Of a stretch of 64,000 bases of DNA, positions 31,440 to 62,411 are shown in pieces (the stretch's first letter is position 1; each line of letters starts with the position of its first letter). This stretch comes from an uncultured Bacteroidales bacterium (GTDB taxonomy: Bacteria > Bacteroidota > Bacteroidia > Bacteroidales > JAGOPY01): NCBI GenBank assembly GCA_964619555.1, contig CAZUDV010000004.1, positions 4,911 through 68,910 on the forward strand, in the 5' to 3' direction. The position numbers were made by a program, and so were the translations under genes. Below the pieces are notes generated by a model. The model was not told the origin of the DNA. It searched no databases and was given only the letters and a program-made list of their open reading frames with translations.

Positions 31440-31451
31440 CTTGATAGATTT

Positions 31452-46382: not shown

Positions 46383-46437
46383 AAAATCGTACTACCACTA
46401 TAGTCGTAGTACGATTTTTTTAAAGCCAGCCGATTTC
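46383..46437 (-). terminator. 55-nt hairpin repeat, copy 2 (14-bp stem with A-run/T-run, bidirectional-terminator shape)
   Basis: aaaatcgtactac cactatagtc gtagtacgattttttt aaagccagccgatttc. It is identical to 59537-59591 and lies 25 nt downstream of the stop of 46462-47805. Confidence 0.7.
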
Positions 46438-46461
46438 CATCTCAGATAAATCGACCTTTAT

Positions 46462-47805
46462 TCATAGTTTGATTATCTTCTTCACAATGATTTGGTTTTG
46501 AAGAGATATTCGGATGAAATAGATGCCTGCGGGCAAATTACTAATATCCAACTCCAGGGTTTCATTGTTCAATTGTTCTATTGTTCTATTGTTGTTTGAT
46601 ACCAGCACCTTTCCGTAAATATCCACCAACTCTAAACTTTTCAACTCAACTTTACCCTTTGAACTTTGCACTTTGAACTTTGAGGTGGTCGGGTTAGGCC
46701 ACACCTGCACAAAATCCTTCCCCTTGTCCCCTTGTCCCCTGGTCTCCTCTACGCCACTCAGGAGGGTATACTTCAAAATGGTATTGTTGTTGCCGCAAGC
46801 ATATCCGCAATTTGGGGAAAAAAACATGATCGACCCTAGTAATTCACCGCTTTTTGGATGAGGTTGTTCTTCCCACACGACGTTCGACCAGTAATAATTG
46901 GTCTCCGGGATGTAGCCATAGTCCCAGGCATTGGAGGTATGATAGATATGGCCATCGAAGGTGGTTGCCCAAAGTTGGTTGGTATCGAGTGCATGCAGGC
47001 ACGTGATGGCGTCTTCGTCGGTGCTGTGGATTTCAGGCCAGTAGTAGTCATAATCCACAAAACCGCGGATTTCACAAAGATTTCCAATCCATCCGTGGTC
47101 TTTATCGATGAAGAAAACCGGTCCGAAGTATCCGCAATGGATTACAAATTCGGGGGTTATGGATTGCTGGCCCGGATCCCAGTAAAAGACCTGTATCCCT
47201 CCGCAAAACCAAACTGCTTCCTCCGTAGCGCTGATCCCGCTCCAGTAATTCAAATGACCGATATCGATCTGGTTAACGCCTTCGGGCGTGATCTGCCACA
47301 TGTAATAGCTTTCATCCGTTGTGACATATCCGGTGTCTGATCCTGGTGCAAATGAAATGTCAGTCACAGGACTGCCCGTTGCACCATGGTAAGCCCAGGT
47401 ATCGCCGCCATCATGGGTGACCATGATAAATCCATTGTGGTCACCAATGTATCCATTTTCGGAATCGAACATCCATATGGCATGGCAATAATCCCAGTGT
47501 GTCTGGATTTCCCAGCTCTCCCCCCCATCTTCAGTATGGAAAATGAGAAATTCCAGTTCCTCATTCTGTTGCAGGCTGGTCACCCAACCTTCGTTTTCAT
47601 TGATGAAAAACAGGTCGAGGTAACTGCCATAATAGGGTTCACCGCCGATGTAAATGGTGTCGGTCGGGGTATTTGGCATGTTGGGAAAGAGATCGGTCCA
47701 GCCGTACTGCTGCCCAAGTGCCAAGTTCAAAGGGCAAAGTGCAAAGAAAAGGCTTATGGCCAGAAGCTTGAGGCTTGTAACTGATTTTTGGCTTTTTGGG
47801 TTCAT
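46462..47805 (-). CDS. T9SS-sorted Ycf48/BNR-like beta-propeller protein
   Basis: ATG at 47805 gives MNPKSQKSVTSLKLLAISLFFALCPLNLALGQQ. Asp-box-like motifs HTEDGGESW and THDGGDTW. Shared CTD: VWPNPTTSKFKVQSSKGKVELKSLELVDIYGKVL ... NNNRTIEQLNN ... LPAGIYFIRI ... KKIIKL. Confidence 0.85.
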   Translation of the reverse strand: MNPKSQKSVTSLKLLAISLFFALCPLNLALGQQYGWTDLFPNMPNTPTDTIYIGGEPYYGSYLDLFFINENEGWVTSLQQNEELEFLIFHTEDGGESWEIQTHWDYCHAIWMFDSENGYIGDHNGFIMVTHDGGDTWAYHGATGSPVTDISFAPGSDTGYVTTDESYYMWQITPEGVNQIDIGHLNYWSGISATEEAVWFCGGIQVFYWDPGQQSITPEFVIHCGYFGPVFFIDKDHGWIGNLCEIRGFVDYDYYWPEIHSTDEDAITCLHALDTNQLWATTFDGHIYHTSNAWDYGYIPETNYYWSNVVWEEQPHPKSGELLGSIMFFSPNCGYACGNNNTILKYTLLSGVEETRGQGDKGKDFVQVWPNPTTSKFKVQSSKGKVELKSLELVDIYGKVLVSNNNRTIEQLNNETLELDISNLPAGIYFIRISLQNQIIVKKIIKL

Positions 47806-47888: not shown

Positions 47889-50780
47889 TTATAGTTTTAT
47901 GATCTTCTTCCCAATCGTTTGATTTTGAAGAGATATTCGGATGAAATAGATGCCGGATGGTAAATTGCTTATGTCGATTTCAAGTGCTGAATTGTTCAAT
48001 TGTTCAATTGTTCGATTGTTATTTGATATCAGCACCTTTCCATATATATCTATCAACTCTAAACTTTTCAACTCAACTTTACTCTTTGAACTTTGCACTT
48101 TGAACTCCCCTCTGGTGGGGTTGGGATACAGCACGACCTCCGGCATCTCCCGCTCGCTCACTGCCGTGGTGATATCCACCGTCACCACCCAGTCCTTCAC
48201 CGTCTGTCCGTTTTCCGAGGTGACCGTGTAGGTGAATGGGCTGGAGAAGTTTTGCATGGTCCCGCCGGGGGGATCGATGCTGGCAGCGGCGGATATAAAC
48301 ACGTCCGGGATGAGCTGGGTCAGGTCCGTGCCTTCAGCCACGATGGCATGGACAGTCTGCGCGGGGATATTGATTTCCGCCGGTTGCACCTGTTGGTCCA
48401 GTACAAAGTCAAGGATGTCGGCGCCACCGGCCGGGAAACCCTCGAGGAGGCCGTAGCGGTAGAGCGAGCCGTTGTTTCCAATCGCCCAGGCATGGTGCCC
48501 GTCGACGGCGAAAATATCCGTCAGCCAGGCATCGGCGAGGTGGTCGGCATGGAAATGCACCGTGTCCGCATTGGCGCTTGAAGACATCAGGATATCCCCT
48601 CCGTTAGTTACTGCCCAGACAGAGTCCATGTCCAGGGTAAAAACGCCCTGGATACTTTGTAAGGTATCTTCATACAAGTGCTGGAACAGCCCATTTCTCA
48701 GTCGGAGAAGCTCCCCTCCATAACTCAGCCAGGCCTGTTCGGGGGCGTTGAATTGCACATCCCCGAAGCATGGGAAATACTGCGCCCCGCCGTAAAAGGT
48801 CCAGGTTCCGCTGTCAAAGATCATTTTCCGGCCAAAGCAGCCGGTGGCCCAACCGTAGTCACCGGAGCCAAAGGAGATGGCGTCCCAGTCGGTGTAGGTG
48901 CCGGTATTCTGGGGAGCCAGGCCTGTTCCCGTTATTTGGGCCAGCCAGCCTTCAGCGCATCCGCACCAGCCCAAATTATCATCAGGTGAAAATCCGATGC
49001 TAAGGATCTGGGAAGGCACCACACCAAAGAAGTTCCAGTTTTGACCGCCGTCAGTGGTTTTACAGAGCAATCCGCTTTCACCGCCGGCATAGCCGGTTTC
49101 GGAAGACAACATGTAAATGGCATGGTTTTCCCCCAATGTGGTCTGCACATCCCAGGTTTCTCCGCCATCCGTAGTGTGGTAGATTTCCTTGTAAAAGCAG
49201 CTGTTGGTGATCCATCCCTCGTTGCCGATAAACCAGAGGCCGGAGAGGCAGCCGCCGGCAGCACCACCGACCGGGAACAGGTTCTCGCTGATATCCACCC
49301 AACCGTAGGCACGGGTATAGGTGGCATCGAAGTTACAGGTAGAGTTGCTGTAGTTCAGGCTGACGTTGCAACTCCTGGGATCGAAATGAGCGTATTTATG
49401 AGTTGGAGTTACAGAGTAATTCCCGTTCGGCAGATGGTTGAATTCATACTCCCCGTTGAGGTTGGTGCGGATGAAGCCGCTGATGGGGCCGCTCAGGTGA
49501 ACCTCTGCCCTGGGATAGGGATTGCCGTCAAGGGTGATGGTTCCATTGATGGAAGAAGTGGGCAGCAGGGTGTTGTCGGTCCGCACGGGCCAGACATGCC
49601 AGTCGGCCGTTTTCAGATACTGCAGCCTGTTGCCGCCGCCCATCATCCCGTCGGAGAACCAGACCATCCAGGCCTGGTCCGTTTCGTCAGCACGGGTGGT
49701 GGAGGTCCAGTATGCCTGGTCAAAGTTGAAACCAGTAACATTGACAAAAGGATATTTTTCCGGCATCGCAGGATTGCTCCGGCTGATGTCCACCAGGCTG
49801 GTCATCTCGTTGCGGTTGGGCATGCGCCAGTCGTTGTGGCCCAGGTAGTTCTCCGAGTTCAACAGGGCAATATAATCCAGCGCATGCTGCCAGTTAATGG
49901 CGCCGTCGACCCACTGGTTGGTGTCGAAATCCGGGTCGCGGGTGAGCATCAGGTTGGCGTCCTTTGTCCACATCAGCCCGGTGAGGCGGTCGGTGACGGT
50001 ACCGTTGTTGTTGTCGACGAGCCGAGGCGTGGGCCAGGCTGTCCCTTCCGCCAGGAACCCATCATCGCCCGGATAAAAGGTGTATTGCTGGCCTGTTTTT
50101 GGGTTTTGAAGCGGCCCCGGATTTCCGCTGTCACGAACGGGAAGAAGGTAGTACTTCCAATTGGTGCTTCCGGTCATGTCAGGATCTTTTGCAAAATCCT
50201 CCGTTTCCCCGGCAGGATTGGTGATGTTGGAATGGGCGTAGTGCTCCCGGAGCATGATAGTGATAGCCAGACTGCGCATTTGCTCTGAGGTGGTCGAACT
50301 CCAGTATACGTCTTTCAGGTTGATAAAAGGATGATCCGGTGGAAGTGCAATTTCGGGGTACCGCAGGTTAACGAGCGATTTCATTTCCACCATATTCGGC
50401 ATGCGCCAATCGTTGTGCCCGAGGTAATTGTCATTATTAAGCAGTACCACGTAATCCAGGGCAGTCTTCCAGTCGATGTCGCCGTCGCCCGGGGTGCGGT
50501 CCTGGTCAAAATCCGGGTTTCGGGTGGCGATCAGGTTGCCATCTTTCACCCACATCAGGCCGGTGAAGGCATCCGTGATGGAGCCGTCGCCGTTGTCTGT
50601 GAATCGGTTGGTTGGGATGGGAACGCCCTTTTGCAGGTCGCCGTCATCACCGGGGTAATAGCTGGTGGTTTGGCCGGTGGCGGGGAGCTGGATTGTGCCC
50701 TGCTGGCCCAGGACATAAGGCGTAGGGCATAGGGCTAAGAGCAGCATTGCGGCTTGCAGCTTGAGGCTTTTGTGTTTCAT
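47889..50780 (-). CDS. T9SS-sorted fusion protein: 2x DUF1566 (Lcl C-terminal-like) + CarboxypepD_reg-like + BNR/Ycf48-like propeller + Ig-like + CTD
   Basis: ATG at 50780 gives MKHKSLKLQAAMLLLALCPTPYVLGQQ. DUF1566 signatures occur twice: TGLMWVKDGN ... HNDWRMPNMVEMKSL and TGLMWTKDAN ... HNDWRMPNRNEMTSL. Also INGTITLDGNPYPRAEVHL ... NGEYEFNHLPNGNYSV, Asp-box-like motifs TTDGGETW and TTDGGQNW, and the shared CTD. Confidence 0.85.
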   Translation of the reverse strand: MKHKSLKLQAAMLLLALCPTPYVLGQQGTIQLPATGQTTSYYPGDDGDLQKGVPIPTNRFTDNGDGSITDAFTGLMWVKDGNLIATRNPDFDQDRTPGDGDIDWKTALDYVVLLNNDNYLGHNDWRMPNMVEMKSLVNLRYPEIALPPDHPFINLKDVYWSSTTSEQMRSLAITIMLREHYAHSNITNPAGETEDFAKDPDMTGSTNWKYYLLPVRDSGNPGPLQNPKTGQQYTFYPGDDGFLAEGTAWPTPRLVDNNNGTVTDRLTGLMWTKDANLMLTRDPDFDTNQWVDGAINWQHALDYIALLNSENYLGHNDWRMPNRNEMTSLVDISRSNPAMPEKYPFVNVTGFNFDQAYWTSTTRADETDQAWMVWFSDGMMGGGNRLQYLKTADWHVWPVRTDNTLLPTSSINGTITLDGNPYPRAEVHLSGPISGFIRTNLNGEYEFNHLPNGNYSVTPTHKYAHFDPRSCNVSLNYSNSTCNFDATYTRAYGWVDISENLFPVGGAAGGCLSGLWFIGNEGWITNSCFYKEIYHTTDGGETWDVQTTLGENHAIYMLSSETGYAGGESGLLCKTTDGGQNWNFFGVVPSQILSIGFSPDDNLGWCGCAEGWLAQITGTGLAPQNTGTYTDWDAISFGSGDYGWATGCFGRKMIFDSGTWTFYGGAQYFPCFGDVQFNAPEQAWLSYGGELLRLRNGLFQHLYEDTLQSIQGVFTLDMDSVWAVTNGGDILMSSSANADTVHFHADHLADAWLTDIFAVDGHHAWAIGNNGSLYRYGLLEGFPAGGADILDFVLDQQVQPAEINIPAQTVHAIVAEGTDLTQLIPDVFISAAASIDPPGGTMQNFSSPFTYTVTSENGQTVKDWVVTVDITTAVSEREMPEVVLYPNPTRGEFKVQSSKSKVELKSLELIDIYGKVLISNNNRTIEQLNNSALEIDISNLPSGIYFIRISLQNQTIGKKIIKL

Positions 50781-50796
50781 TATTGAGTTTTTCTTT

Positions 50797-50895
50797 ACCA
50801 CAATAGGCACAATAGGGCACATGGGAGGCACAATAGAATTTTAAATTTAGAATTATTCTATGTGTTTTCTATGTGTTCTATGTGACTATGTGGTT
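50797..50895. repeat. relative of the ~100-nt palindromic element (arms kept, core replaced by AT-rich aattttaaatttagaattatt)
   Basis: Left arm: accacaataggcacaatagggcacatgggaggcacaatag. Right arm: ctatgtgttttctatgtgttctatgtgactatgtggtt. Confidence 0.65.
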
Positions 50896-50900
50896 AATAT

Positions 50901-52214
50901 TCATAACTTAATGATTTTCTTTACGATCGTCTGATTTTCAAAGTTTATTCGGATGAAATAGATGCCGGAATGTAAATTGCTTATGTCGATTTCAAGTGCT
51001 GAATTGTTCAATTGTTCAATTGTTCGATTGTTATTTGATATCAGCACCTTTCCATAAATATCTATCAACTCCAAACTTTGAAACTCAACTTTGCCCTTTA
51101 CCCTTTGGACTTTGAACTCCCCGGTGGTGGGGTTCGGCCATAATTTCACGCTCTCATTCTCCCATTCTCCCGGTCCCCCGGTCTCCTCTTCCCCGCTCAC
51201 CGCCCCGTATTTCAGCAGGATCTTTTCTCCTCCGTAAATAAATCCATTGTTTGGAGAGGTGAAACGGACGCCATTGAGGAACCCGTTGGTCAGGGTATGC
51301 TCCAGCCTGATCCAGTCCGTGCCGCCGTTGCCGGTGTGGAATATCTGCGCAACCGAGCCCACGGCCCAGCCATTGTTCTCATCATTGAAAAAGACCCCCG
51401 TCAGCGCACCTTCAAGGACGGTATTCACCGAGGTGGTGTACCAGTCAATCCCTACTTCTGTTTTTAGGAACCGGTCACCGACGCACCAGCCAAGGTCATC
51501 CGTCAGAAAGAAAAGCCAGCCCTTTCCCGCATAAGGGTAACTTGCCTCCACATGCCATTCCCCATCCATGAAATAGATGATCATTTGATAATCAAGTATG
51601 GCGTAGCCTCTTTCGACGGAAGGGAAATCGATACAGTAAACATTCCCGGCCAGCCCCAGGTCGAACGGGAAGACGCCTTCCGGCGTGATTTGCGCCATTT
51701 TCCCATTCTTGCCGCCTGCATACCCGTTTTGTGCCGGTCGGGGCGGAAATCCCAGGTCGTAAAGATAAGCACCCAGGTGCCCGTGGTAATTCCAGGTCTG
51801 GCAACCGTCTTCAGTCCGGTAAATCATACCGTTGGTGGCACCGAGATAGCCGGTGTTTTCATCGACCATGTAAATATCCGCCGAAGCCAGGGGAGCATCA
51901 TGAGCGGTCCAGGTCTGCCCGCCGTCAATTGTTTCCAGCACTGCTGACTGCTCTCCGTCGAAAGGATGATTGGTACAGATCCAGCCGTGGTTGTCGTCGA
52001 TGAACGTTAACCCGCTGATGTTGGCGATGATTGTATCGGCTCCGTTGTTGATGATGACAGTGTCGTTGTTGAAATCGGGCAGGTTGGCGGTAATGTTGGT
52101 CCAGCCGTACTGCTGCGCAAATAGTGAACAGTGAAGGGTGAGCAGTGAAGCGAGGATTAGCAATGAAGTGTGAAGGGTGAAGTGGGAGGCGGGATGCTGA
52201 ATTATTGGTTTCAT
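50901..52214 (-). CDS. T9SS-sorted Ycf48/BNR-like beta-propeller protein
   Basis: Signal region MKPIIQHPASHFTLHTSLLILASLLTLHCSLFAQQ. Motifs ETIDGGQTW, RTEDGCQTW and HTGNGGTDW, plus the shared CTD. Confidence 0.85.
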   Translation of the reverse strand: MKPIIQHPASHFTLHTSLLILASLLTLHCSLFAQQYGWTNITANLPDFNNDTVIINNGADTIIANISGLTFIDDNHGWICTNHPFDGEQSAVLETIDGGQTWTAHDAPLASADIYMVDENTGYLGATNGMIYRTEDGCQTWNYHGHLGAYLYDLGFPPRPAQNGYAGGKNGKMAQITPEGVFPFDLGLAGNVYCIDFPSVERGYAILDYQMIIYFMDGEWHVEASYPYAGKGWLFFLTDDLGWCVGDRFLKTEVGIDWYTTSVNTVLEGALTGVFFNDENNGWAVGSVAQIFHTGNGGTDWIRLEHTLTNGFLNGVRFTSPNNGFIYGGEKILLKYGAVSGEEETGGPGEWENESVKLWPNPTTGEFKVQRVKGKVEFQSLELIDIYGKVLISNNNRTIEQLNNSALEIDISNLHSGIYFIRINFENQTIVKKIIKL

Positions 52215-52232
52215 GGCTGAGTTATTTTTTCA

Positions 52233-52331
52233 ACACATAGACACATAGGGCACATAGGAAGCACAATAGAGTTCTATCCCGCCCATGGTGGGACAAGTTG
52301 TGTAATCTTTGTGTTCTATTGTGCCTATTTG
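52233..52331. repeat. ~100-nt palindromic intergenic element, orientation 1
   Basis: acacatagacacatagggcacataggaagcacaatagagttctatcccgcccatggtgggacaagttgtgtaatctttgtgttctattgtgcctatttg, with a central 7-bp GC hairpin tcccgcc cat ggtggga. Confidence 0.8.
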
Positions 52332-52339
52332 TTTAATTG

Positions 52340-54796
52340 TCATTGTTTAATTATCTTTTTCACGATCGTTTGGTCTTCAATAGATATCCGGATAAAATAG
52401 ATACCTGAGGGCAAATTACTAATATCCAACTGCAGGATTTCATTGTTCAATTGTTCTATTGTTCTTTTGTTATAGATTTCCAGCACTCTTCCATTTATAT
52501 CCACCAACTCAATAACTCCAGATCCAAGATTGTAAATTGTAAACTGTAAATTGTAAATCCCTCTTCCCGGATTGGGAAACACCTCCACACTTGTAAGCCC
52601 GGGTCCCCCTGAAACATTGGGATCTGGTGCCTGTATCCCCGTATATCCCTCTTTGATGGTAACCCCAACTGATTCTCTCCCATCGGTTTCACAAGTGAAA
52701 ACACCGTACCATTCCTGGCTTACCGGAACGTTCCAGGTCAGGTATTGCGATGTTTCCCCTTCAAAAGCCGATGAATCCAAAATAGTATCGTTAAAATACC
52801 ATTGATAGGATGACCAGCCGTCAGGAGCTTTAAAAACCACCGTGCTTTCGATGGGTTTACTCCCGATCAGTTCTATAAGCAGATTGCCGCCGGTCTCAAC
52901 CTGCAGGAGTCTATTCATCCATTCTCCATCATTGACGATATTCCCGGTGACATACAACCTTAACATCCCGGATCCAAAATCCCGAATCAGTCCGAAATTC
53001 GTCACGTTACCATATATGGGAAGATCAAAGTATTTAGAACCTCCTCCAAAGGTATTGGATTGCATCGTGTCATTGATGATGACCGGGCAAAGGATTGTAT
53101 TGAGATCATCAATACTAACGGTTCCCTCCAGGGTAAGCTGTGTCGTGGATGATACGTTATTCAAACAGCCTCCCTTCAGCTTTGCTTCATCCAGTGTGCC
53201 GTTCCATAAAGTACCATCCATTTTCAGTTCTTTATTTCCCATCACCAGGCTGTTTCCGTTCAAGTTGAAATTTCCGGTAAAGGCCAGGTCGGAACCGGCA
53301 AAATTCGTACTCATGATTTCCGAATCTATGAATTCACCACCGAATGTTTTTCCTTCCAATAATGTGATCGTTTGATGCCCCGTTCCGTTCAGGATTGTTT
53401 CAGCAGGTTCCCACATTCCATGGTTATTAATGTCACCAGTGATTTTCAACCTGAGGCGATCATCAATGTCGTTGATTATCCATCCGTTATTGATTAAATC
53501 GCCTTCAACCTGAAGATCGTAATATTTAGTCCCACCCCCAAATGAATTGGCCTGAAGGGTGTCATCAACAGTCACCTTGTTGCGGAATACATTGTTATCG
53601 TCGACCGTCACTTTACCATTGATAATAAGGTTATCGATGCTTTCTATATTCTGCAGTATTGCCCTGTTTAATTTGATATTATTGATATATCCGTCAAAGA
53701 GCCGACCGGTCAGGTACAGCGTGTGTCCCAGGCCTTCAAGCGCAGATCCTTTGAGCTCGAAGTTTCCCAGGCATTGAATATCAGAATTCATGCAGATTTT
53801 GCTTTCAGGATCCAGGTCGGTGAAATTGCTCTCGAAAGGGTTTCCCTCCATATATTGGTCATTGTTCCCGATGAAGGCCACGAATCCACAGGTCCAGCTA
53901 CCGTTATTGATAATGTTCCCTGTGATAAGAATATGCAGATAATCGCCCTCTTCTTCATGATCCCTTACCCAGCCGTTATTGGTTAGATTTCCGTTAATCT
54001 TTAGTTTCATCATGCCTGTGCCTCCGCCAAAATAATTTGCCTGCAGGGTATCGGTGACAGTAATATTGCCTGCGAAGAAAAGGGTGTCTGTTGAATGATG
54101 GCTGACCCGGAAAGTCCCTGCAATTTCGAAATCTCCCGCGATAGTTCCCCCGTAGATGATCGTACCAATTGCTTTGATCCTGTGATTTCCCATATCCAGG
54201 GTGGCGCCCCCAAGGTTAAAATCTCCCAGGTAACTTTCACCGCTATGATAATATACTCCGTCGTATGTGAAATCCGTTTCCGAAACCAGGGAAGTGCCTG
54301 ACATGGCTGTGATCCATCCTCCGAATATGTTTCCGGGGCCAAGCACCAGCTTTTGAATACCTGATCCGGTGAAATGGGTAGCATGCGGACGATAGTTGCT
54401 AAAATTTGAAAGGTCCCCGGATATCGAGATATCGACATATTCGTTGCCATTGGCCACGTTTCCGTAATTGATCAGGTGTCCTGAAACGAAAAGCTGAAAG
54501 GTGGCCAGGCCTCCGCCGTAATCCTGGGCGGTCAGCATGGCGCCGGGATCAATGGTAATCTGTGCACACCAACTGTGATAGATGTTATACCAATCAACAT
54601 GACCGATGGTTACCGTGGCTAATTGGGAGATCACCACAGTATCCCCTTCTCCAGGGATCAAACCCTGCATCCAGGTGCTCGTGGAATCCCAGCAGCCGCC
54701 ACTTGAGGTTGAATGAATAATGATCGCATTGGTCCGGGTGATAAAGACATTTACCAGCATAAAGACCAGACTGATTTTGATAATGATTTTTTTCAT
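52340..54796 (-). CDS. T9SS-sorted repetitive (beta-helix-like) protein with about 4 long internal repeats
   Basis: ATG at 54796 gives MKKIIIKISLVFMLVNVFITRTNA. Recurrent units: TDTLQANYFGGGTGMMKLKINGNLTNNGWV, DDTLQANSFGGGTKYYDLQVEGDLINNGWI, NDTMQSNTFGGGSKYFDLPIYGNVTNFGLI; and GDFNLGGATLDMGNHRIKA, GNFELKGSALEGLGHTLYL, GNFNLNGNSLVMGNKELKM. CTD variant: VFPNPGRGIYNLQFTIYNL ... LPSGIYFIRI ... KKIIKQ. Confidence 0.8.
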   Translation of the reverse strand: MKKIIIKISLVFMLVNVFITRTNAIIIHSTSSGGCWDSTSTWMQGLIPGEGDTVVISQLATVTIGHVDWYNIYHSWCAQITIDPGAMLTAQDYGGGLATFQLFVSGHLINYGNVANGNEYVDISISGDLSNFSNYRPHATHFTGSGIQKLVLGPGNIFGGWITAMSGTSLVSETDFTYDGVYYHSGESYLGDFNLGGATLDMGNHRIKAIGTIIYGGTIAGDFEIAGTFRVSHHSTDTLFFAGNITVTDTLQANYFGGGTGMMKLKINGNLTNNGWVRDHEEEGDYLHILITGNIINNGSWTCGFVAFIGNNDQYMEGNPFESNFTDLDPESKICMNSDIQCLGNFELKGSALEGLGHTLYLTGRLFDGYINNIKLNRAILQNIESIDNLIINGKVTVDDNNVFRNKVTVDDTLQANSFGGGTKYYDLQVEGDLINNGWIINDIDDRLRLKITGDINNHGMWEPAETILNGTGHQTITLLEGKTFGGEFIDSEIMSTNFAGSDLAFTGNFNLNGNSLVMGNKELKMDGTLWNGTLDEAKLKGGCLNNVSSTTQLTLEGTVSIDDLNTILCPVIINDTMQSNTFGGGSKYFDLPIYGNVTNFGLIRDFGSGMLRLYVTGNIVNDGEWMNRLLQVETGGNLLIELIGSKPIESTVVFKAPDGWSSYQWYFNDTILDSSAFEGETSQYLTWNVPVSQEWYGVFTCETDGRESVGVTIKEGYTGIQAPDPNVSGGPGLTSVEVFPNPGRGIYNLQFTIYNLGSGVIELVDINGRVLEIYNKRTIEQLNNEILQLDISNLPSGIYFIRISIEDQTIVKKIIKQ

Positions 54797-54811
54797 GGCT
54801 GATATTGTTTT

Positions 54812-54916
54812 CACCACATTAGGCACATAAATCACATAGATTACACAACTTGTCCCGCCATGGGCGGGATAGAAATCTATTGTGCCTCCTATGTGCCCTA
54901 TTGTGTCTATGTGGTT
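54812..54916. repeat. ~100-nt palindromic intergenic element, orientation 2 (reverse complement of 52233-52331)
   Basis: The reverse complement reads ccacatagacacaatagggcacataggaggcacaatagatttctatcccgcccatggcgggacaagttgtgtaatctatgtgatttatgtgcctaatgtggtg. The central hairpin is tcccgcc atg ggcggga at 54853-54869. Confidence 0.8.
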
Positions 54917-54921
54917 AATAT

Positions 54922-55995: not shown

Positions 55996-56006
55996 TATTG
56001 CAATTT

Positions 56007-57119
56007 TTAGATCACTGTTTCATGTTTACGGCTGATGACCCGGTTCAGGTTGCTCATGAACACGGAGAGCGTTGTGGGCAGATTAGCGGGATTGAAGCCA
56101 GCCGGGAACTTCGCCGGCAGGTGGTTGACTTTTTCGAGCAACTCATAGAAATTCACCGGTATCATGAAATCGAACCGCAGTTTGTTGACACAGGCATCTT
56201 TAACCGTCTGTATATCTGCTTCTTTCAATCCGAGCAAATGAGCGGCAGTTCTGGAAAGAAGACTATCGGTAACCGGCTCATCAAGCAAGGGTCGGATAAG
56301 TCCTTCATGGTTTTCTTTCAGAATTTTGAGGACGATGATTTCCGCCAGGATATCCACCGGAATGACCCTGAAACTGAAGGGAAAGTAATACCCTGTTTTC
56401 AGGAAAATATCGAGGATATGCCAGATAGAATAGTGATTCGGACATAGGCCGTTTTTCTCTGAACCGAGTACCAGCGGGATGTCATAAATACATCCTTTGA
56501 GGCCCTGGTCCATGGCATTCCGGATAGCCTGGCCGGCCACCCACTTGAACCCCGCGTAGCCCGACTGCCATGCATTGGTATTCAATGCCTTGAAATCCTG
56601 ATCAGTTTGAAAGAAACTGGCATTGAACGAAGAAGCATAATGCAGTGATTTGGGGGATTCCGGGTCCGCGCAAAAGGAGATCATCCTCTCCAGCTCGGGG
56701 ATCCATACCCGCTGGAAATGATGATAGGGCAGATGGTACAGGGGGGTCATGGCGAGATGGATCACCGTGCCGGTTTCACTTTTAACCATTTTGAACTCCT
56801 TGGCGTTGAGGTTCATGCGGTTCATGGTCACATCCCCCAGGTGGATGCAGAAATCAACCGGATTAAAATCTTCGAGGCCCCATTGGGAATAGGCCTGGAT
56901 CATCTTGCCGATGGCTTCGCCGATGGAGGGCGCCCGGAGCAATAAGTGGATTTTGCCGGGTTGGGTTTCCCGGAGTTTTTTCACGACATGGACTCCGATA
57001 AATGAGTTTGCGCCGGTCACCAGGATGCCGCCCGGATATTTTGAATTATGGGAGACAACCGTATTCCATTTTTTATGGATCAGGCTTTCGGTTCGGATAT
57101 CCTCTGTATGGGAGGTCAT
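56007..57119 (-). CDS. stand-alone thioester reductase-like SDR (NAD_binding_4 / male-sterility-type)
   Basis: Rossmann motif ILVTGANSFIGVHVVKKL, then LGDVTMNRMNLNAKEF ... VIHLA, and YAGFK (YxxxK). Its stop lies 11 nt upstream of the LamG gene start. Confidence 0.75.
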   Translation of the reverse strand: MTSHTEDIRTESLIHKKWNTVVSHNSKYPGGILVTGANSFIGVHVVKKLRETQPGKIHLLLRAPSIGEAIGKMIQAYSQWGLEDFNPVDFCIHLGDVTMNRMNLNAKEFKMVKSETGTVIHLAMTPLYHLPYHHFQRVWIPELERMISFCADPESPKSLHYASSFNASFFQTDQDFKALNTNAWQSGYAGFKWVAGQAIRNAMDQGLKGCIYDIPLVLGSEKNGLCPNHYSIWHILDIFLKTGYYFPFSFRVIPVDILAEIIVLKILKENHEGLIRPLLDEPVTDSLLSRTAAHLLGLKEADIQTVKDACVNKLRFDFMIPVNFYELLEKVNHLPAKFPAGFNPANLPTTLSVFMSNLNRVISRKHETVI

Positions 57120-57266
57120 AAAAAGTGGTTTGGTTAACTTTATCAGCTTAAAGTTACAAAGGGGGAAAAGGGGGTTGCAAATTTCCAGGGCTACATTTGC
57201 ACTCGGAGCACCCTACAAAAACACTCATGGGAGAGATCAAAAGGGTGTATTAAAAGTCTTTTAATA

Positions 57267-57449: not shown

Positions 57450-59471
57450 CTATACCGCCGCCAGGAAACTGCTGAGATTATCGTCCCGCTTCAGGTTCAG
57501 CTTTTGACGGATCCGGCTGCGTGTCACTTCGATGCTTTTAGGCGACCTGCCGGTGATCGCGGAGATTTCCCTGGTGTTGAGGTTCATCCTCAGGAAGGCA
57601 CAGATTCGTTGCTCATAGGAAGTCAGCTCCGGATGTTTATCATACAACCTCTGGTAAAATCCCGGATGCACCTGCGTGAACTGGGTCTCAAATTCCCTCC
57701 AGTTGCTTTGCGGGGCATCGATCCTGAGCTCATTGACGATTGAAAGCAGTTCATCATTGTTGTTATCCGGGGATTGCTGAATTTCCTGGAGCCTTTTGAT
57801 CAGCCGCGATATCAGTTCATTTTTCTGGTTCAGGAATAACATTTTGGAGGCCAGTTCCCGTTTCTTTCCGTCCAGTTCACCTTCTAATTCCTGCAGATGC
57901 TGAAGGTTGATCAATTCCTGCTGCTGGTAAAGCAGTTTCGCATCCCGGTTCCTCCTGAAGAGCAGCAGAATGATCACCAGGCTCAGGCCTGTGATCGTTA
58001 CCAGGGTCAGGGTGATGATATTCCGGATCCGAAGTTTCTGTTCCTGCAGGTAAGCTTTATTCCTGAGGAGTTCATTCTCCTTCTCTTTTTTCTCGTAATT
58101 ATACCGTGCTTCGATACGGCTGATTTCCTGACGCTGGTTATAAAAGCTAAGGCTATCGGTATGGGCCATGGTGGTTTTGTACCATCGCAGCGCAGCCAGG
58201 GCATTTCCGCTTTTTTCGTATGCTTCCGACAACAATGATGAAGCGTCTCTCTGGGCAGGGACAAGGTTCAGTTCTTCCGCAATCGAGTAAGCCTTTTTCC
58301 CATGGGTAACGGCACCCGGATAATTCTGCTGATGCATCAATGTCTTTGCGTGCAAAAGGCAAATATTGGCGATCAATGGCCTGTTATTGGTTTCGGATGC
58401 TTTGGCCGAGGCCTTTGTAAGATATTCATCCGCCAGGCCGTATTTTTTTTCGGAATAATAATATTTTCCGAAGATGTAATCGCATTCCGCCTCAAATGGC
58501 CGCGAACCGATCTCCTGAGCTACGGTATGAATACGATTGCAATATTCGAGTGCCTTGTCATTTTGGCCCATATCCAGGTAGAGACCTGCCAGGTTGTAGT
58601 ACCTTACAACCAGAGCAGATTTCTGTTGCAGGAGCTCTTCAATGGAAGTCGACCGGAGGATGTACGACAGGGCCTTGTCATATTCATTCACCATTTTCAA
58701 AACTACGCCAATATTCAGCAATGCGGTAGAAACCGCTTTCTCGTCGCCCGATTTCTCATAATGACTGAGTGCTTCCTCGAACGACACAATTCCCTGGTCC
58801 ATATTTCCCTGTTCACAAAGGAGAATGCCCGCATGCAGCCTGACATCCGCGATCAGGCTGCTATCGTTCAGTTCCGTTGCGATTTGCATACATTCCATGT
58901 AACTCGAGTCAGCCCGGGTATAATTGCCCAGGCGCCTGAAAGCATTGCCGGCTGCGTGCCTGACGTTGAACATGCCCATTTTATAGTTATCTTCAGCATA
59001 TAACTCATAGGATTGTTCCAGCATCCTGACGGCTTCCGGGTAGAGGTTGCTCATATAACGGATGTACCCGATATCATATAGTGCCTGGGCATGGAGGGAT
59101 CTTAACCCGGCTGCCTCCGACAGTTCCAGTGAGCGCCGGTAATAGGATTCAGCCCTTGCATATTCGTCGTTGTAATAATGGATATTCCCGGTGTAATTCA
59201 GGGCTTTGATCACGGTTTCAAGGTATGACAATTGTTTTCCTGATATCTCCACCTGATTTGTGGTTAGCTCAGCTTCGGGGCTTCCGAAGATCAGGCGGTA
59301 GTAATAAATAGCTGAGTCGGGATTTTCATTATGCAGCGCCCTCCCTTTCCTCAGCAAGGCATTAACAAAAGCAGTATCATGGTCTGTGATATTCGCAGAT
59401 ACCACATTCCATAACATTGTTAAAGCAAAAGTTATTAGGACAGATTTTTTAGATTCGGTTAAATAAATCAT
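57450..59471 (-). CDS. transmembrane one-component regulator: N-terminal signal/anchor + TPR array + TM helix + coiled coil + LuxR/GerE-type HTH
   Basis: ATG at 59471 gives MIYLTESKKSVLITFALTMLWNVVSA (the track start 59552 lies inside the hairpin repeat). Has many TPR-like units, a TM helix IITLTLVTITGLSLVIILLLF, and HTH LTSYEQRICAFLRMNLNTREISAITGRSPKSIEVTRSRIRQKL. Confidence 0.85.
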   Translation of the reverse strand: MIYLTESKKSVLITFALTMLWNVVSANITDHDTAFVNALLRKGRALHNENPDSAIYYYRLIFGSPEAELTTNQVEISGKQLSYLETVIKALNYTGNIHYYNDEYARAESYYRRSLELSEAAGLRSLHAQALYDIGYIRYMSNLYPEAVRMLEQSYELYAEDNYKMGMFNVRHAAGNAFRRLGNYTRADSSYMECMQIATELNDSSLIADVRLHAGILLCEQGNMDQGIVSFEEALSHYEKSGDEKAVSTALLNIGVVLKMVNEYDKALSYILRSTSIEELLQQKSALVVRYYNLAGLYLDMGQNDKALEYCNRIHTVAQEIGSRPFEAECDYIFGKYYYSEKKYGLADEYLTKASAKASETNNRPLIANICLLHAKTLMHQQNYPGAVTHGKKAYSIAEELNLVPAQRDASSLLSEAYEKSGNALAALRWYKTTMAHTDSLSFYNQRQEISRIEARYNYEKKEKENELLRNKAYLQEQKLRIRNIITLTLVTITGLSLVIILLLFRRNRDAKLLYQQQELINLQHLQELEGELDGKKRELASKMLFLNQKNELISRLIKRLQEIQQSPDNNNDELLSIVNELRIDAPQSNWREFETQFTQVHPGFYQRLYDKHPELTSYEQRICAFLRMNLNTREISAITGRSPKSIEVTRSRIRQKLNLKRDDNLSSFLAAV

Positions 59472-59535
59472 ACGCCGAATAAATAAAAACTGTTGACGAT
59501 GAGGCAATAAAGATAGAAAAAAGACGGAGATAAAT

Positions 59536-59591
59536 AAAAATCGTACTACCACTATAGTCGTAGTACGATTTTTTTAAAGCCAGCCGATTTC
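59536..59591 (-). terminator. 55-nt hairpin repeat, copy 3
   Basis: aaaaatcgtactac cactatagtc gtagtacgattttttt aaagccagccgatttc. It lies 25 nt downstream of the stop of 59616-62411 and upstream of the regulator start. Confidence 0.7.
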
Positions 59592-59615
59592 TATCAATGA
59601 TAACTCTGTCTTTAT

Positions 59616-62411
59616 TTATAATTTGATGATTTTCTTCACGATCGTTTGATTTACGAGCGATATTCGGATGAAATAGATACCAGGCGGCAGGGAGCTGATG
59701 TCGAAATCAAGAGCACGCTTGTTCAATTGTTCAATTGTTCTATTGTTATTGGGTATCAGCACGTTTCCATTAATATCCACCAACTCTAAACTTTGAAATT
59801 CAATCTTGCCCTTTGAACTTTGAACTTTGAACTTACCGGTGGTTGGATTAGGCACAATATCCACATCACCTGCGATCCATGATTCCATGCTTTTATCCTC
59901 CTCCAAACCCGTGGTGATGTCCCAGACAGCTGTTGCCATACCACGGCCATGAGTTGCTGCCAGAACAGTGAAATCACTTTGCCTGATTTGAAGCATATCT
60001 ACCCTGACATTTGCCAGACCTTCAATATCCTGGACCCAAACCGTGTTGGTTTCATCCAGGTTTGAAGTGGTCCAGATTCCCAGCTCGGTAGCCAGCATGG
60101 CATGCTGTGTGCTGGTGGGATGGTAAAGGGCCCACCGGACCGGCATATCGGGCAGGTTGGCTTCCTTGTTTTCCCAGGTAGTGCCACCGTCGTAAGTCTG
60201 CCAGACCGATTCGACACCATAATTTGAAAAAACTGCCAGTAAAGTATCGTCCGATCCTCCAATGGCCACACATGAAATAGCCCCTTCCGGGAAATCGTCG
60301 CCGGTGATCTCGGTGACCTGCGGCGTGGCCTGGGCATTCTGCACCCTGAACAGCCTGCCGGATAGAGAACCGGCAAAGAGGGTGGTGGTTCCGTCAGGCG
60401 AATGGGGACTGCATTCGACGGCGGAATAATAAACACTGAGGCCTGTATTCAGGTTGATGAAATTCCCGGTGATGTTGCTGGGGATGCCGCTGATCCGGAG
60501 GATCCGGTTGGCCAGCTGTCCGCCGAATTCACAGGCATTGGCATAAAGGATATTATTCGCGTTATCGTAATCGGCAGGAGATACGAATGTGCCGCTCGAC
60601 CAGTCGCTCATGGAAGCATACCAGTTACCATTGTTCCATAGGGTATACTGGTTATAATATACCGAAGTGATCATGTATTGCGACTGGTCCTGGTCGATGA
60701 AACAACCCGAACCGTCGCCCCCGTCGATCATCTGGTTAATCGTCAGGGCCTGCCCGGTGTAATAAAGTGTCCCGTTATCCTGCAGACCGCCCACGCACCT
60801 GGCATTTCCGGCCGCAGGATGCAAGGCACAGGTATAGAACTGGAGGGTGCCGTATCCCAGATTCTTTTCCTGGAAATCCGGGCTGGACGATCCGGCATTA
60901 TCGGTATAAAATACCCCACCGTCGGAAGTAATGAGCAATTCATCGGATGAACCGGGTTTATATGCAATATCATGGATATCAGCATGCACATATTCATCTC
61001 CTCCTCCATAATACATCAGGGCCCATTCGGAAACCTGGTTCCAGCTTAGGCCGCCGTTGACAGATTTGTAAACGTCCAGGCCACCTATATACAGGGCATC
61101 CGGATCATTGGGATCAACTCCCACTGTTAGGGCATGCCATCCGATAGTAGCCCAGAAGTAATTGCCGCCGGACGGGATATTTCGGGCGTTCCAGGATGCC
61201 CCGGCATCTGAAGTCCGTGCAATGTGCCGGCCCTGGGTATAAATGAATCCGTTCTCGCTGTTCACATAACCCGCATCGAACAGGGCATATGCCACATCCG
61301 GATCAGAAGGTGCGCTGCCGATCATCACCCGGTTCGGAATATTGTATTGCGACTGACCCTGGATGATATCGATATAATCATCGTAAATAGTCCAGGTGCC
61401 GATCAATCCCTGGTCGGAATATAGGATGGTGGCACCGCCTTCACCGTCGAGATTGGCCATGGAACCAACCAGTATCCTGTTTCCGGCAGTGATTTCGATA
61501 TCTGCCACGGTAAACGGTTTGTTTGTCCCGGGAATCAGAGGGAGTACCTGAATCCAGGTGCCGCCGCCGTCAGTGGAACGATATAGCCCATCATTCGGTG
61601 TACTTTGCTGAGTGCCATGGTATGTGCCGGACGCCACTCCGGCATAGACTACGCTGTTGCCGTTTTCAACCCTTACTTCGACATCCGTAATATATTTGAA
61701 ATTCAGGGTAGATGACAGCTGTTGCCAGGTCAGGCCACCGTCGACTGATTTGAAGATCCCCGCCCCTATCCCGCTGGATTCGCGGTAGATGACCCGGGAG
61801 GTGAACGCTTCGCCGGTTCCCACATAAAAGACCTGGGGATCGACGGGATCGAAAGTAATGTCACTGATGGCTAAAGAAGGCCACAGGTCGTCAACCGGTT
61901 GCCAGGGGGAAAGCTGGCTGGAAATATTGTTGTTGTACCACAACCCTCCCGTCACTGCCCCGGCCCAGACTTTATAACCGCCGGTACTGTTGGGATCCCA
62001 CATGATGCACCGGGTCCTTCCTCCCATATTGGACGGTATGATCTCCCATTGCAGCGGATTCCCTGTTTTCAAGGCAGGATCCTTTTCTTCCGCCTTTAAT
62101 GAATTGTAAGCAGAAACAAGCCGTTCGACAGGCACCCGCTTTTCCTTCGGATCCATAGTTTGCAGAAAATCCTGGAATGCCGCCATCTGGGGCTCGTCGA
62201 ATGACTTACCGGGTTTTGAGTCTTGAGTTTTGGGTTCTGAGTTATGAGTTCTGGGTTGTGTATTGCCATCTCCCATTTCTTTTCCTGTTTCCAAAAGGTA
62301 TTTTTCATATTCAGACCGGTCTTGCTGTTTGTCTCTCAGGATAAGAAAACTGGCGAGAAGGGCAAGGGCAGCCATCATGAAGACTGCGAGGGGCAGATGC
62401 CTGGATTTCAT
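59616..62411 (-). CDS. T9SS-sorted BNR/Asp-box beta-propeller protein (sortilin-VPS10 / GH74-like)
   Basis: Anchor/signal MKSRHLPLAVFMMAALALLASFLIL. Asp-box repeats KSVDGGLTW, RSTDGGGTW, RTSDAGASW, KSVNGGLSW and TYDGGTTW. Has the shared CTD (IVPNPTTGKFKVQSSKGKIEFQSLELVDINGNVL ... NNNRTIEQLN ... LPPGIYFIRI ... KKIIKL). Confidence 0.85.
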   Translation of the reverse strand: MKSRHLPLAVFMMAALALLASFLILRDKQQDRSEYEKYLLETGKEMGDGNTQPRTHNSEPKTQDSKPGKSFDEPQMAAFQDFLQTMDPKEKRVPVERLVSAYNSLKAEEKDPALKTGNPLQWEIIPSNMGGRTRCIMWDPNSTGGYKVWAGAVTGGLWYNNNISSQLSPWQPVDDLWPSLAISDITFDPVDPQVFYVGTGEAFTSRVIYRESSGIGAGIFKSVDGGLTWQQLSSTLNFKYITDVEVRVENGNSVVYAGVASGTYHGTQQSTPNDGLYRSTDGGGTWIQVLPLIPGTNKPFTVADIEITAGNRILVGSMANLDGEGGATILYSDQGLIGTWTIYDDYIDIIQGQSQYNIPNRVMIGSAPSDPDVAYALFDAGYVNSENGFIYTQGRHIARTSDAGASWNARNIPSGGNYFWATIGWHALTVGVDPNDPDALYIGGLDVYKSVNGGLSWNQVSEWALMYYGGGDEYVHADIHDIAYKPGSSDELLITSDGGVFYTDNAGSSSPDFQEKNLGYGTLQFYTCALHPAAGNARCVGGLQDNGTLYYTGQALTINQMIDGGDGSGCFIDQDQSQYMITSVYYNQYTLWNNGNWYASMSDWSSGTFVSPADYDNANNILYANACEFGGQLANRILRISGIPSNITGNFINLNTGLSVYYSAVECSPHSPDGTTTLFAGSLSGRLFRVQNAQATPQVTEITGDDFPEGAISCVAIGGSDDTLLAVFSNYGVESVWQTYDGGTTWENKEANLPDMPVRWALYHPTSTQHAMLATELGIWTTSNLDETNTVWVQDIEGLANVRVDMLQIRQSDFTVLAATHGRGMATAVWDITTGLEEDKSMESWIAGDVDIVPNPTTGKFKVQSSKGKIEFQSLELVDINGNVLIPNNNRTIEQLNKRALDFDISSLPPGIYFIRISLVNQTIVKKIIKL

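Follow-up and report, generated by a model that had tools for sequence, protein, structure and literature searches.

A probable regulator-headed island of type IX secretion cargo genes with sorting domains exchanged between unrelated neighbours in an uncultured Bacteroidales bacterium

The stretch of DNA analysed here, referred to as the window, is the whole 64-kb piece (64,000 nucleotides, nt) taken from contig CAZUDV010000004.1 of an uncultured Bacteroidales bacterium. It contains an array of eight genes on the minus strand, numbered along that strand so that g8 is the first and g1 the last transcribed (Table 1). Six of them (g8 and g5 to g1) have the features of genes for type IX secretion system (T9SS) cargo, and the other two encode a predicted membrane regulator (g7, or REG) and a thioester-reductase-like enzyme (g6, or RED). 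The six cargo genes end in one sorting-domain module, called the tail below, and this text is concerned above all with the exchange of tails between neighbouring genes by homologous recombination. A first-pass annotation, made from the letters of the sequence without database searches, had described eight open reading frames (ORFs) on the minus strand, and all of them are present where it placed them; its choice of the shorter start codons of g1 (47805), g2 (50780), g4 (54796) and g7 (59471) is backed by signal peptides, by the lengths of orthologs and by gene calls of the Joint Genome Institute (JGI). The domains it had named are recovered by Pfam in the passengers of g8, g5, g2, g3 and, weakly, g1, as well as in g6 and in the tetratricopeptide repeats (TPRs) of g7, the exceptions being the helix-turn-helix (HTH) of g7 and the label given to g4.

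Table 1. Features of the cargo array, in the order of transcription, with the repeats of the tails at the end (positions count from the first letter of the window)
Feature	Position	Strand	Description
g8	59616-62411	minus	T9SS cargo, Sortilin/BNR-type propeller; tail 59616-59855
Terminator after g8	59537-59591	minus	Intrinsic terminator, second copy of the g1 terminator
g7 (REG)	57450-59471	minus	Predicted membrane one-component regulator, TPRs, transmembrane helix and LuxR/sigma-r4-like HTH
Tandem cis-element	57191-57227	minus	Candidate operator of REG, conserved across REG loci
g6 (RED)	56007-57119	minus	Cytoplasmic thioester-reductase-like short-chain dehydrogenase/reductase; NAD_binding_4
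g5	54922-55995	minus	T9SS cargo, LamG/concanavalin-like; tail 54922-55161; Laminin_G_3 (68 bits), Por_Secre_tail and signal peptide
Palindrome after g5	54797-54921	minus	About 100 nt, -43.1 kcal/mol, z = -4.7
g4	52340-54796	minus	T9SS cargo, uncharacterised family; tail 52340-52579, divergent ATTTACA-heptamer type
Palindrome after g4	52215-52339	minus	Same palindrome family, z = -3.6
g3	50901-52214	minus	T9SS cargo, Ycf48/BNR-like propeller; tail 50901-51140; PSII_BNR (48.7 bits) and Por_Secre_tail
Palindrome after g3	50781-50900	minus	Same palindrome family, z = -5.2
g2	47889-50780	minus	T9SS cargo, two Lcl_C (DUF1566) domains and BNR propeller; tail 47889-48128
g1	46462-47805	minus	T9SS cargo, BNR propeller paralogous to g3; tail 46462-46701; last gene of the array
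Terminator after g1	46383-46437	minus	Intrinsic terminator, 13-bp stem with A and U tracts
Octamer array, g1 tail	46564-46593	minus	N-GAACAAT x3-5, encodes the NNRTIEQLNN loop (beta4-beta5)
Octamer arrays, other tails	47979-48020, 50991-51032, 52442-52471, 55012-55053, 59719-59747		Equivalent arrays
Heptamer array, g1 tail	46657-46683	minus	TTCAAAG x3-4, reads FKVQSSK, encodes beta1-beta2
Heptamer arrays, other tails	48084-48106, 55088-55139, 59811-59834		Equivalent arrays
Heptamer array, g4 tail	52529-52558		ATTTACA x4.3 instead, reads IYNLQFT

Each of the six tails is exactly 240 nt long (79 codons and a stop codon), and their pairwise identities are 64-90% in nucleotides and 57-87% in amino acids (aa). 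When the genes are compared without gaps from the stop codon backwards, the identity passes from chance to 43-100% exactly at the xPNP motif, and in the 30-nt windows flanking the tails it is at chance level. The two mismatches in 110 nt that the first-pass annotation had counted by hand between 47935-48044 and 50947-51056 are exact, and the conservation is limited to the tail module. Its description of one C-terminal module attached to unrelated passengers thus stands, but not a repeat that ends at the stop codon, because the hairpins on the 3' side are shared as well.

The tails belong to the type A sorting domains of the T9SS, as had been proposed. All six pass both Por_Secre_tail (PF18962; E values of 1e-12 to 1e-15, 45.7-55.6 bits, cutoff 27) and TIGR04183 (40.9 bits in g8 to 50.9 bits, cutoff 23), and they have sequence matches to the solved C-terminal domains (CTDs) 8glk_D and 8qb1_A. 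An AlphaFold2 (AF2) model of the tail has a pLDDT (predicted local distance difference test) of 70.5, its N-terminal 16 residues being of low confidence and the segment encoded by heptamers below 50. The top Foldseek matches of this model are again solved CTDs, namely 8glk_D (the NucA CTD in the translocon, TM-scores 0.61/0.64), 8gl6_D, 8qb1 and 7pq4/5ag8, at E values of only about 1e-3, and the CTDs matched by fold are those of NucA, RemA, mirolase and RgpB. Three motifs of the tail are fixed: the beta3-beta4 turn D-x-Y-G, the stretch GIYFIRI and VKKIIKL at the C-terminus. The residues E24, L25, D27, G30, V32 and K74-K78 are invariant in the six and retained in all 19 tails compared. In described CTDs, the beta3-beta4 loop (region B, with a D-x-x-G turn) and the C-terminus (region E) are reported as functional, and beta1-beta2 and the beta4-beta5 loop as variable and tolerant (PMC11285876). 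By inspection, all six cargo proteins also have signal peptides, those of g1 to g5 with hydrophobic N-termini and ends of the A-x-A/Q-Q type and that of g8 resembling a signal anchor. By every class feature examined (hidden Markov model (HMM), fold, signal peptide and motifs) the six proteins are T9SS type A cargo, with secretion itself predicted from these features. The subfamily to which the tails belong is narrow: an exhaustive HMM search gave 80 representatives at E <= 1e-10, with many different passengers, among at least 8000 CTD matches. A word-indexed search with the 79-aa consensus of the tail was insensitive and gave four matches, so a genome scan and the exhaustive HMM search were used instead.

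It had also been noted that this tail differs from the CTD of the two LamG and immunoglobulin-like (Ig) genes at 29946-33011, and these genes do carry a canonical and visibly different CTD. They are a minus-strand tandem pair (29946-31439 and 31452-33011) whose C-terminal halves, comprising Ig domain, linker and CTD, are 55-78% identical and whose N-terminal LamG parts are 20-30% identical, which is the same kind of pattern as in the array, an alike C-terminal half with a divergent N-terminal part.

The history of the tails was followed through orthologs of g1, g2, g3, g4 and g8 from eight other assemblies, found by the genome scan and by neighbourhood look-ups; the comparison genomes, designated by L and P numbers, are all metagenome-assembled genomes (MAGs) or metagenome contigs. 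The passengers of orthologs are 66-85% identical, or 88.5% for g3 against P0163, whereas their tails are 41-58% identical. For example, g2 and its ortholog in a Lentimicrobium MAG (78% identical) agree in 77.6% of the nucleotides of the passenger and in 53.1% of those of the tail, g1 and its ortholog (80% identical) in 79.3% and 66.2%, and a third ortholog pair in 66.0% and 55.4%; g3 and P0163, counted in amino acids, share 88.5% of the passenger and 41.9% of the tail. The DNA alignments of g2 and g3 with their orthologs break off within about 15 nt of the start of the tail and resume only over the last 70-90 nt, that of g3 with the L204 ortholog running at 84.7% nucleotide identity up to about 14 nt into the tail. 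In addition, three orthologs of g4 carry three different tail types, and the tails of two adjacent genes in L213 are 84% identical. Among 19 tails from six genomes, tails of one genome share on average 61.6% identity and tails of different genomes 44.8% (label permutation, p = 1e-4).

The tails of the window have a mosaic structure. The longest run of concordant sites reaches significance between g2 and g3 (37 polymorphic sites, p = 0.0002) and between g1 and g4 (p = 0.0006), 310 of the 666 informative site pairs among the six tails fail the four-gamete test, and the neighbour similarity score (NSS) is elevated (p = 0.011). Identity at third codon positions reaches 0.83 between tails, and the sharing continues into the 3' flanks. 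One alternative, in which no recombination took place and the T9SS of the species itself imposes strong purifying selection on the CTD so that tails converge or stay constrained, agrees with the mapping of the invariant residues to known functional motifs. It does not account for identity that reaches synonymous sites and non-coding 3' flanks (55 of 55 nt in one pair), for mosaics with significant tracts and massive four-gamete failure, or for segments that are uniform here and vary within other genomes and hence are not required motifs; it is considered improbable. Since orthologs have discordant tails, and mosaics and synonymous identity are found besides, concerted evolution rather than protein constraint alone is responsible: paralogous tails of one genome are closer to each other than orthologous tails are. 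The evidence strongly supports the view that tails are homogenised and swapped among genes by gene conversion together with the trailing hairpin, and the gene conversion that had been suggested from conservation confined to one module is thereby supported by ortholog comparisons, by mosaic tests and by the clustering of tails by genome. In the limited literature that could be searched, only one paper touching on gene conversion or concerted evolution of CTDs was found, that on domain rearrangement in Porphyromonas gingivalis, which is weak evidence of absence.

The 3' hairpins, overlooked in the earlier reading, are part of the repeat unit. The intrinsic terminators behind g1 and g8 are identical in 55 of 55 nt (fold z = -4.05 and -4.67), and the palindromes behind g3, g4 and g5 have arms made of CACATAG-type units without a U tract, the g4 palindrome being 94% identical to the g5 copy over 81 nt in inverted register. 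In the window this palindrome family occurs only directly behind tails, and it lies directly behind tails in L005, L006, L204 and L206 likewise. Part of the g1/g8 terminator stem recurs a third time at 43500-43540 (27-41 nt, 90-100% identical), in the intergenic DNA that separates the divergent M16 peptidase and cohesin-like genes.

The most conserved stretches of the tail at the DNA level are non-triplet microsatellites, a point which had likewise been overlooked. Tandem Repeats Finder (TRF) detects two in each tail, a heptamer array at the start and an octamer array in the middle. Three units of N-GAACAAT make 24 nt, that is, eight codons read as RTIEQLNN, and the octamer array is the most conserved stretch of all, with a 23-nt core in 6/6 tails where none is expected by chance. 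A scan with the core GAACAATWGAACAATTGAACAA showed that at least 120 unrelated metagenome contigs have the octamer array too, for the most part outside coding sequence; among the matches listed, a related tail accompanies one of 120 octamer loci, so the octamer is a widespread microsatellite. The window has 25 arrays of period 7 or 8, 11 of them in the six tails (together 2.25% of the sequence), and six further ones lie in signal-peptide or linker regions of the same cargo genes. Such repeats encode the signal-peptide regions of g1, g2 and g3 (47716-47746, 50710-50769 and 52123-52182), an N-terminal low-complexity stretch of g8 (62211-62257) and the linkers before the tails of g1 and g3 (46719-46748 and 51151-51171), all of them parts that are removed from the mature protein or peripheral to it. 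Non-triplet repeats are reported to be largely kept out of coding DNA (PMC4679880). In the tails, the repeats encode the variable and tolerant regions of the CTD, namely beta1-beta2 and the beta4-beta5 loop. These regions change quickly from one genome to the next, and the repeats would be tolerated here because the encoded protein segments are cleaved off. The same two segments vary in sequence and length in relatives, which have KFQITSTKFQTNSKNQIQN, GVVSLQSSV..., WNTGTLEQSNPEPGTWN or long GTS/GTP expansions in their place, and one length difference between genomes is +24 nt, or three octamers. In L104 139-369, P0004 and P0129 the repeat segments (NLEPGTWNLEPGT, GTSGTPGTSGTS and ITIGTITIGTITIGT) have grown several-fold with the rest of the CTD kept.

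Slippage of these 7- and 8-nt repeats might be thought to serve phase variation, in which a shifted frame of the sorting domain switches a cargo protein between the secreted and the retained state. The crowding of such arrays into the tails despite their rarity in coding DNA, and the differing lengths of the repeat segments between genomes, would fit this idea. However, an array has 3-5 units, which is short for efficient slippage, and perfect octamer arrays would meet a TGA stop codon, which caps their length. Moreover, the six tails of the window and those in short-read assemblies of relatives are in frame, and frameshifted tails were seen only in assemblies with many fragmented genes (L205 and L207), where they are most likely indel errors of long reads. 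Phase variation is therefore judged very unlikely. In L205 (4192-10180), two tandem g2-like genes are seemingly fused and frameshifted at their tails, in an assembly with many fragmented genes and probably through sequencing error.

The conserved core of the locus, as observed in other genomes, consists of the regulator, a cis-element and usually the reductase, and the set of cargo genes is different in every genome examined. Wherever the contig continues past the REG-RED pair, Por_Secre_tail genes or a tail relic follow. In L204, the closest relative, the outer flanks are as in the window, being formed by g8 and a ceramidase-like gene at one end and by cohesin-like and M16 genes at the other, but only two cargo genes come after the reductase; directly behind the stop codon of the latter, at 8116-8150, lies a tail relic of the last 11 codons, NQTIVKKIVKL*, followed by a palindrome. 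This relic indicates a deletion with one breakpoint inside a tail. In P0034 the reductase is followed by an ORF of 68 aa that consists of the Por_Secre_tail domain only. L206 (Ga0130016_10000004, 723 kb), from metagenome sample 3300009868 like the window, has a second regulator-reductase-cargo locus, with a regulator 59% identical and with a tail type of its own (GVVSLQSSV…EHGTGNTEHD) that is homogenised within that locus. The question whether regulator, reductase and CTD-gene arrays occur together in relatives is thus answered positively, but the annotated set is not an undescribed system of fixed composition, since the cargo varies and the g4-g3 pair is also found away from any regulator.

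Such turnover recalls a cassette-capture device, in which tail and palindrome would form an attC-like site for a site-specific recombinase behind a fixed promoter. A co-directional array behind one conserved promoter and regulator, cassettes that differ from genome to genome, a conserved palindrome behind each cassette in five genomes and tail relics beside the reductase are what such a device would leave. No integrase or recombinase domain, on the other hand, is found in the window ORFs scanned, among the called genes of the 21-kb locus or in the flanks examined; the palindromes (CCACATAG...CTATTGTGG), judged by eye, depart from the R''/R' consensus of attC and are without its GTTRRRY core; and the breakpoints lie inside tails or at the PNP boundary, as in homologous exchange, with mosaic tracts typical of gene conversion. 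Site-specific capture is accordingly improbable, and the repeated capture of a sorting-domain cassette which the first-pass annotation had offered beside gene conversion is unneeded to explain the data, though the turnover of cargo is real. Neither a reverse transcriptase nor an integrase is present near the array, and the readings as a diversity-generating retroelement or as an integron were dropped.

The regulator is not embedded in the array, as had been described, but heads it, and the reductase is not a stand-alone gene but the conserved neighbour of the regulator. According to the hydropathy profile, g7 starts with a hydrophobic segment at its N-terminus, continues with TPRs over about 450 aa and a transmembrane helix (482-505), and closes with a cytoplasmic coiled coil and the HTH. 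In the predicted topology the TPRs are extracellular and the HTH is intracellular. TPR_12 scores 120 bits, GerE 19.6 bits (below the cutoff of 23.5), and the matches to LuxR-type HTHs in the PDB are weak (E 0.04-0.12); in the earlier label of a transmembrane TPR protein with a LuxR HTH, the first part stands and the second falls below the Pfam cutoff. The family has about 60 full-length relatives with 45-79% identity, in which the C-terminal 80 aa are most conserved, and the nearest model is that of the BT3442 family (NCBIfam NF053779), to which g7 does not belong, as it scores 72 bits where 940 are required. L210, an uncultured Tenacibaculum sp. (GCA_947498565.1), also has a distant TPR homolog, 25% identical to the regulator, flanked by several CHU_C and Por_Secre_tail cargo genes and without a reductase; TPR regulators beside cargo clusters may be common in Bacteroidota.

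Between g7 and g6 lies the tandem cis-element, an invariant element of 19 nt with the sequence TGAGTGTTTTTGTAGGGTG (invariant form across spacers TGAGTGTTTTTGTARGGTG) and with a second GAGTG-N4-TGTAG copy 22 nt downstream. Its core is invariant in 7/7 aligned REG-RED intergenic regions, and it precedes a Bacteroidota-type promoter (-33 TTTG, -7 TAACTTT[A/G]), of which the -7 box in the window, TAACTTTA, stands 37 nt before the ATG of g6. The element is unique in the window and occurs once, in the same orientation and just downstream of REG, in L005, L030 and L204-L209; that is, it is present in 9/9 distinct REG-bearing loci with DNA (eight besides the window), and the 1.55 Mb of DNA fetched contains no further copy. 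In L005 and L030 it is present though the first downstream gene encodes an unrelated protein of 369 aa, and therefore it goes with the regulator and not with the reductase. The co-regulation that had been suggested for the array thus gains a concrete basis in a cis-element tied to the regulator, which suggests that the genes behind it may respond together.

In a search with TAnnTTTG, -7 boxes precede g8, g7 and g6 and, as a weak match, g2, but no other gene of the array. Terminators with a U tract were found only after g8 and g1; g8 has its own promoter box TAACTTTG at -37 and its own terminator. This placement would therefore make one transcription unit of g6-g5-g4-g3-g2-g1 with internal hairpins, and a separate unit of g8. 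The gene g6, 11 nt ahead of g5, is the first past the candidate regulated promoter. A scan for sigma-70 promoters and simple terminators gave counts at the level of shuffled sequence, as expected for Bacteroidota, and was replaced by the TAnnTTTG search.

The reductase has NAD_binding_4 (PF07993) at 81 bits (cutoff 20.1), TIGR01746 at 95.7 bits, below its cutoff of 213, and the Rossmann motif TGANSFIG; its nearest solved structures are terminal R domains of polyketide synthase (PKS) and nonribosomal peptide synthetase (NRPS) systems, with PDB matches to a terminal reductase of a PKS (8v1x) and to the R domain of MxaA. It is without a signal peptide, and neither a carrier protein nor a synthetase is found near it. 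In the neighbourhoods examined that have a full-length REG match of at least 46% identity, REG is followed by an ortholog of g6 (50-75%) in 8/8 loci, the window included. In Lentimicrobium ACE_NR_BACT3, the ORF in the reductase slot was considered as a candidate reductase and rejected, as it encodes 369 aa without similarity to g6 and without a Pfam match.

Propellers of the Ycf48/BNR type are found in g1, with a weak PSII_BNR match, in g3, with PDB matches to Ycf48, and in the C-terminal half of g2. The latter gene has two Lcl_C domains and PSII_BNR, together with CarboxypepD_reg (31.3 against 32.3 bits) and DUF5018 below their cutoffs, and its DUF5018-like Ig domain matches putative glycoside hydrolases of Bacteroides. 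The large Sortilin/BNR protein g8 matches Sortilin-Vps10 besides Por_Secre_tail in Pfam, its orthologs are 76% (L204) and 66% (L006) identical, and no solved relative was found. The passenger of g4 has no Pfam match, and its family of about 60 homologs consists of T9SS cargo proteins that are all hypothetical. Its AF2 model (pLDDT 91, predicted TM-score 0.76) is an all-beta repetitive body of short strands with a C-terminal Ig-like domain and found no global counterpart in the PDB with Foldseek, so of the earlier label 'repetitive beta-helix-like' the repetitive beta part stands, and beta-helix is plausible but unconfirmed. Judged from these domains, the passengers are most plausibly surface-binding or glycan-directed proteins.

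As short-read assemblies break at these repeats and the comparison genomes are all MAGs or metagenome contigs, an artefact of assembly or binning, in which repeated tails led to chimeric joins and neither the array nor the discordance of its tails is real, has to be weighed as well. Independent Logan assemblies, however, reproduce the g7-g6-g5 segment (59565-55028 of the window) with 99.6% identity, and an NCBI contig of 326 kb is the source of recorded proteins that match g7 and g4 at 100%. The adjacencies g2-g1, g4-g3 and g8-REG-RED recur in other genomes, the tails, with 64-90% identity, differ too much for an assembler to collapse them, and the discordance is seen in eight different assemblies. 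The short-read contigs of the 99.6%-identical strain begin inside the g8 terminator copy and finish inside the octamer repeat of a tail, and such breaks are what genuine multi-copy repeats give rise to. An artefact is extremely improbable.

The locus is probably a chromosomal, regulator-headed T9SS cargo island of Lentimicrobiaceae-type Bacteroidales, with fast turnover and recombining tails. In such an island, g7 would expose its TPRs to the periplasm and bind, by its cytoplasmic HTH, the two GAGTG-N4-TGTAG copies just upstream of the Bacteroidota-type promoter, which would drive one transcription unit with g6 first, followed by g5 to g1, the five genes for secreted proteins. The sixth cargo gene, g8, which lies upstream of the regulator, would have a promoter and a terminator of its own. 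Having a Sec signal peptide and a type A CTD, the cargo proteins would be exported by Sec to the periplasm and would pass the T9SS translocon with removal of the tail, by homology with known T9SS cargo, after which the passengers would remain on the cell surface or leave it. The exchange of tails makes the tail of a gene resemble those of its neighbours and not that of its ortholog, and tail homology also accompanies the gain and loss of whole cargo genes, by which the array comes to differ in every genome.

Several observations weigh against this interpretation. The homogenisation is not universal, for in L211 neighbouring tails share only 45% identity and the loops differ among the five tails of the Lentimicrobium MAG, and the g4-g3 pair is also found without a regulator within 4 kb upstream. 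The reductase slot is taken by the unrelated 369-aa protein in two loci (L005 and L030). In the g7 family, GerE is found in 10 of 22 members at E <= 0.01, none of them above the cutoff, and Sigma70_r4_2 in 4 of 22, and the role of the cis-element as a candidate operator of REG is suggested by their co-occurrence. The single transcript was derived from simple motif scans, and it could be that the palindromes terminate transcription and that promoters between the genes went unrecognised. Finally, no gene of the T9SS machinery lies within the 64-kb window.

A bolder and unlikely extension may be mentioned here. Tail and palindrome might together be a portable unit of homology, making the array a 'cargo integron' that needs no recombinase, with microsatellites as a source of fast diversification and possibly of on/off switching of single cargo proteins by frameshifts, and with TPRs that may sense the VKKIIKL peptide of cleaved or jammed tails. 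If true, unrelated genes for secreted proteins would be plugged into and removed from a regulator-headed array by homologous recombination, and the sensing of tail peptides would, speculatively, close a feedback loop between the load of secretion and the expression of cargo.

A JGI metagenome contig of 119 kb (Ga0130016_10001745, sample 3300009868) carries the window, and the surroundings of the array are ordinary chromosomal genes, among them FabF, RNase III, PheS, PBP2/RodA, SurA, SusC/D and an M16 peptidase. A gene resembling neutral ceramidases (Ceramidase_alk; 62466-63890, minus) precedes g8 here and in L204, and beyond it, upstream in L001, there are genes of the TonB-dependent-receptor-like, DUF4249 and MG2/CarboxypepD_reg types. 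An Rfam scan of the window gave one tRNA only, and no known RNA family covers the tails or hairpins. Heptamer repeats are not confined to the cargo genes. A TTCAAAG array (39816-39846) makes up the last codons (VQSSKGKVQS*, compare FKVQSSKGKVE in the tail) of an unrelated gene for a pyridoxal-phosphate-dependent decarboxylase (38349-39848, plus), the 3' end of which the microsatellite seems to have extended or overwritten. Long period-7 arrays outside the cargo array are found at 7608-7702, 15741-15873, 17918-17960, 25479-25502 and 2666-2690, and include GTTTCTG x13.6, AACCAGA x17.7 and AAACACT x6, that of AACCAGA lying inside an ORF (15426-16250) without a Pfam match. The genome is thus generally rich in heptamer repeats of the type known as long simple sequence repeats (LSSR) or short tandemly repeated repetitive sequences (STRR). 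Furthermore, two period-24 arrays with related units (GGTCAATTT…CGGCG) at 33466-33534 and 36015-36120 flank a gene cluster on opposite sides.

Compared with known systems, the proteins resemble T9SS type A cargo such as RgpB, mirolase, NucA and RemA in their Sec signal peptide, CTD of about 80 aa, D-x-x-G turn and K-rich C-terminus, but unlike typical cargo their tails form a lineage-specific subfamily with segments encoded by microsatellites and with exchange among neighbours. The nearest precedent for the latter is in P. gingivalis, where the paralogous T9SS cargo genes rgpA, kgp and hagA share modules through homologous recombination or gene conversion, with domain rearrangement and allelic exchange (PMC5266723); there related adhesin passengers are exchanged, whereas here it is the sorting domain with its 3' hairpin, between unrelated passengers in one tandem array. 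With the cassette arrays of integrons and polymorphic toxins the locus has in common co-directional unrelated units, a fixed head, a conserved palindromic 3' element and changing content; unlike integrons, however, it is without an integrase or an attC-like consensus, its conserved unit is mostly coding and its breakpoints are those of homologous recombination. The microsatellites are like LSSR/STRR heptanucleotide repeats (Mrazek 2007; TAACTGA, PMC4679880) in that tandem 7-8-nt units abound within one genome and identical units (GAACAATT, TTCAAAG) turn up again in many unrelated contigs and in intergenic DNA, but the units of the window are read through as protein in signal peptide, linker and CTD. 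The regulator, with its signal or transmembrane segment, TPRs, transmembrane helix and HTH, is like the Bacteroidota membrane TPR regulators with a LuxR/GerE HTH (JGI annotation calls one relative 'TPR repeat protein/CsgD family regulator') but differs in the fixed partner gene and the fixed cis-element of its subfamily. No description of this regulator-element-reductase module, or of CTD segments encoded by repeats, was found in the limited literature that could be searched, which again is weak evidence of absence.

The sorting domains of the T9SS are usually treated as passive, slowly diverging signals. What is new here is that the sorting domain itself is a recombining unit between unrelated neighbours, in genes that otherwise belong to an ordinary class. 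Consequently, phylogenies of CTDs are unusable for tracing the history of cargo genes, and the repeats of the tails explain why assemblies break at these loci. The tails are also a clear natural example of non-triplet microsatellites tolerated in coding DNA. The TPR/HTH regulator, the 19-nt tandem element and the reductase form a candidate module for regulating T9SS cargo by a route other than the PorXY/SigP paradigm. The exchange of tails suggests how Bacteroidota might quickly give new passengers a signal that their own T9SS accepts.

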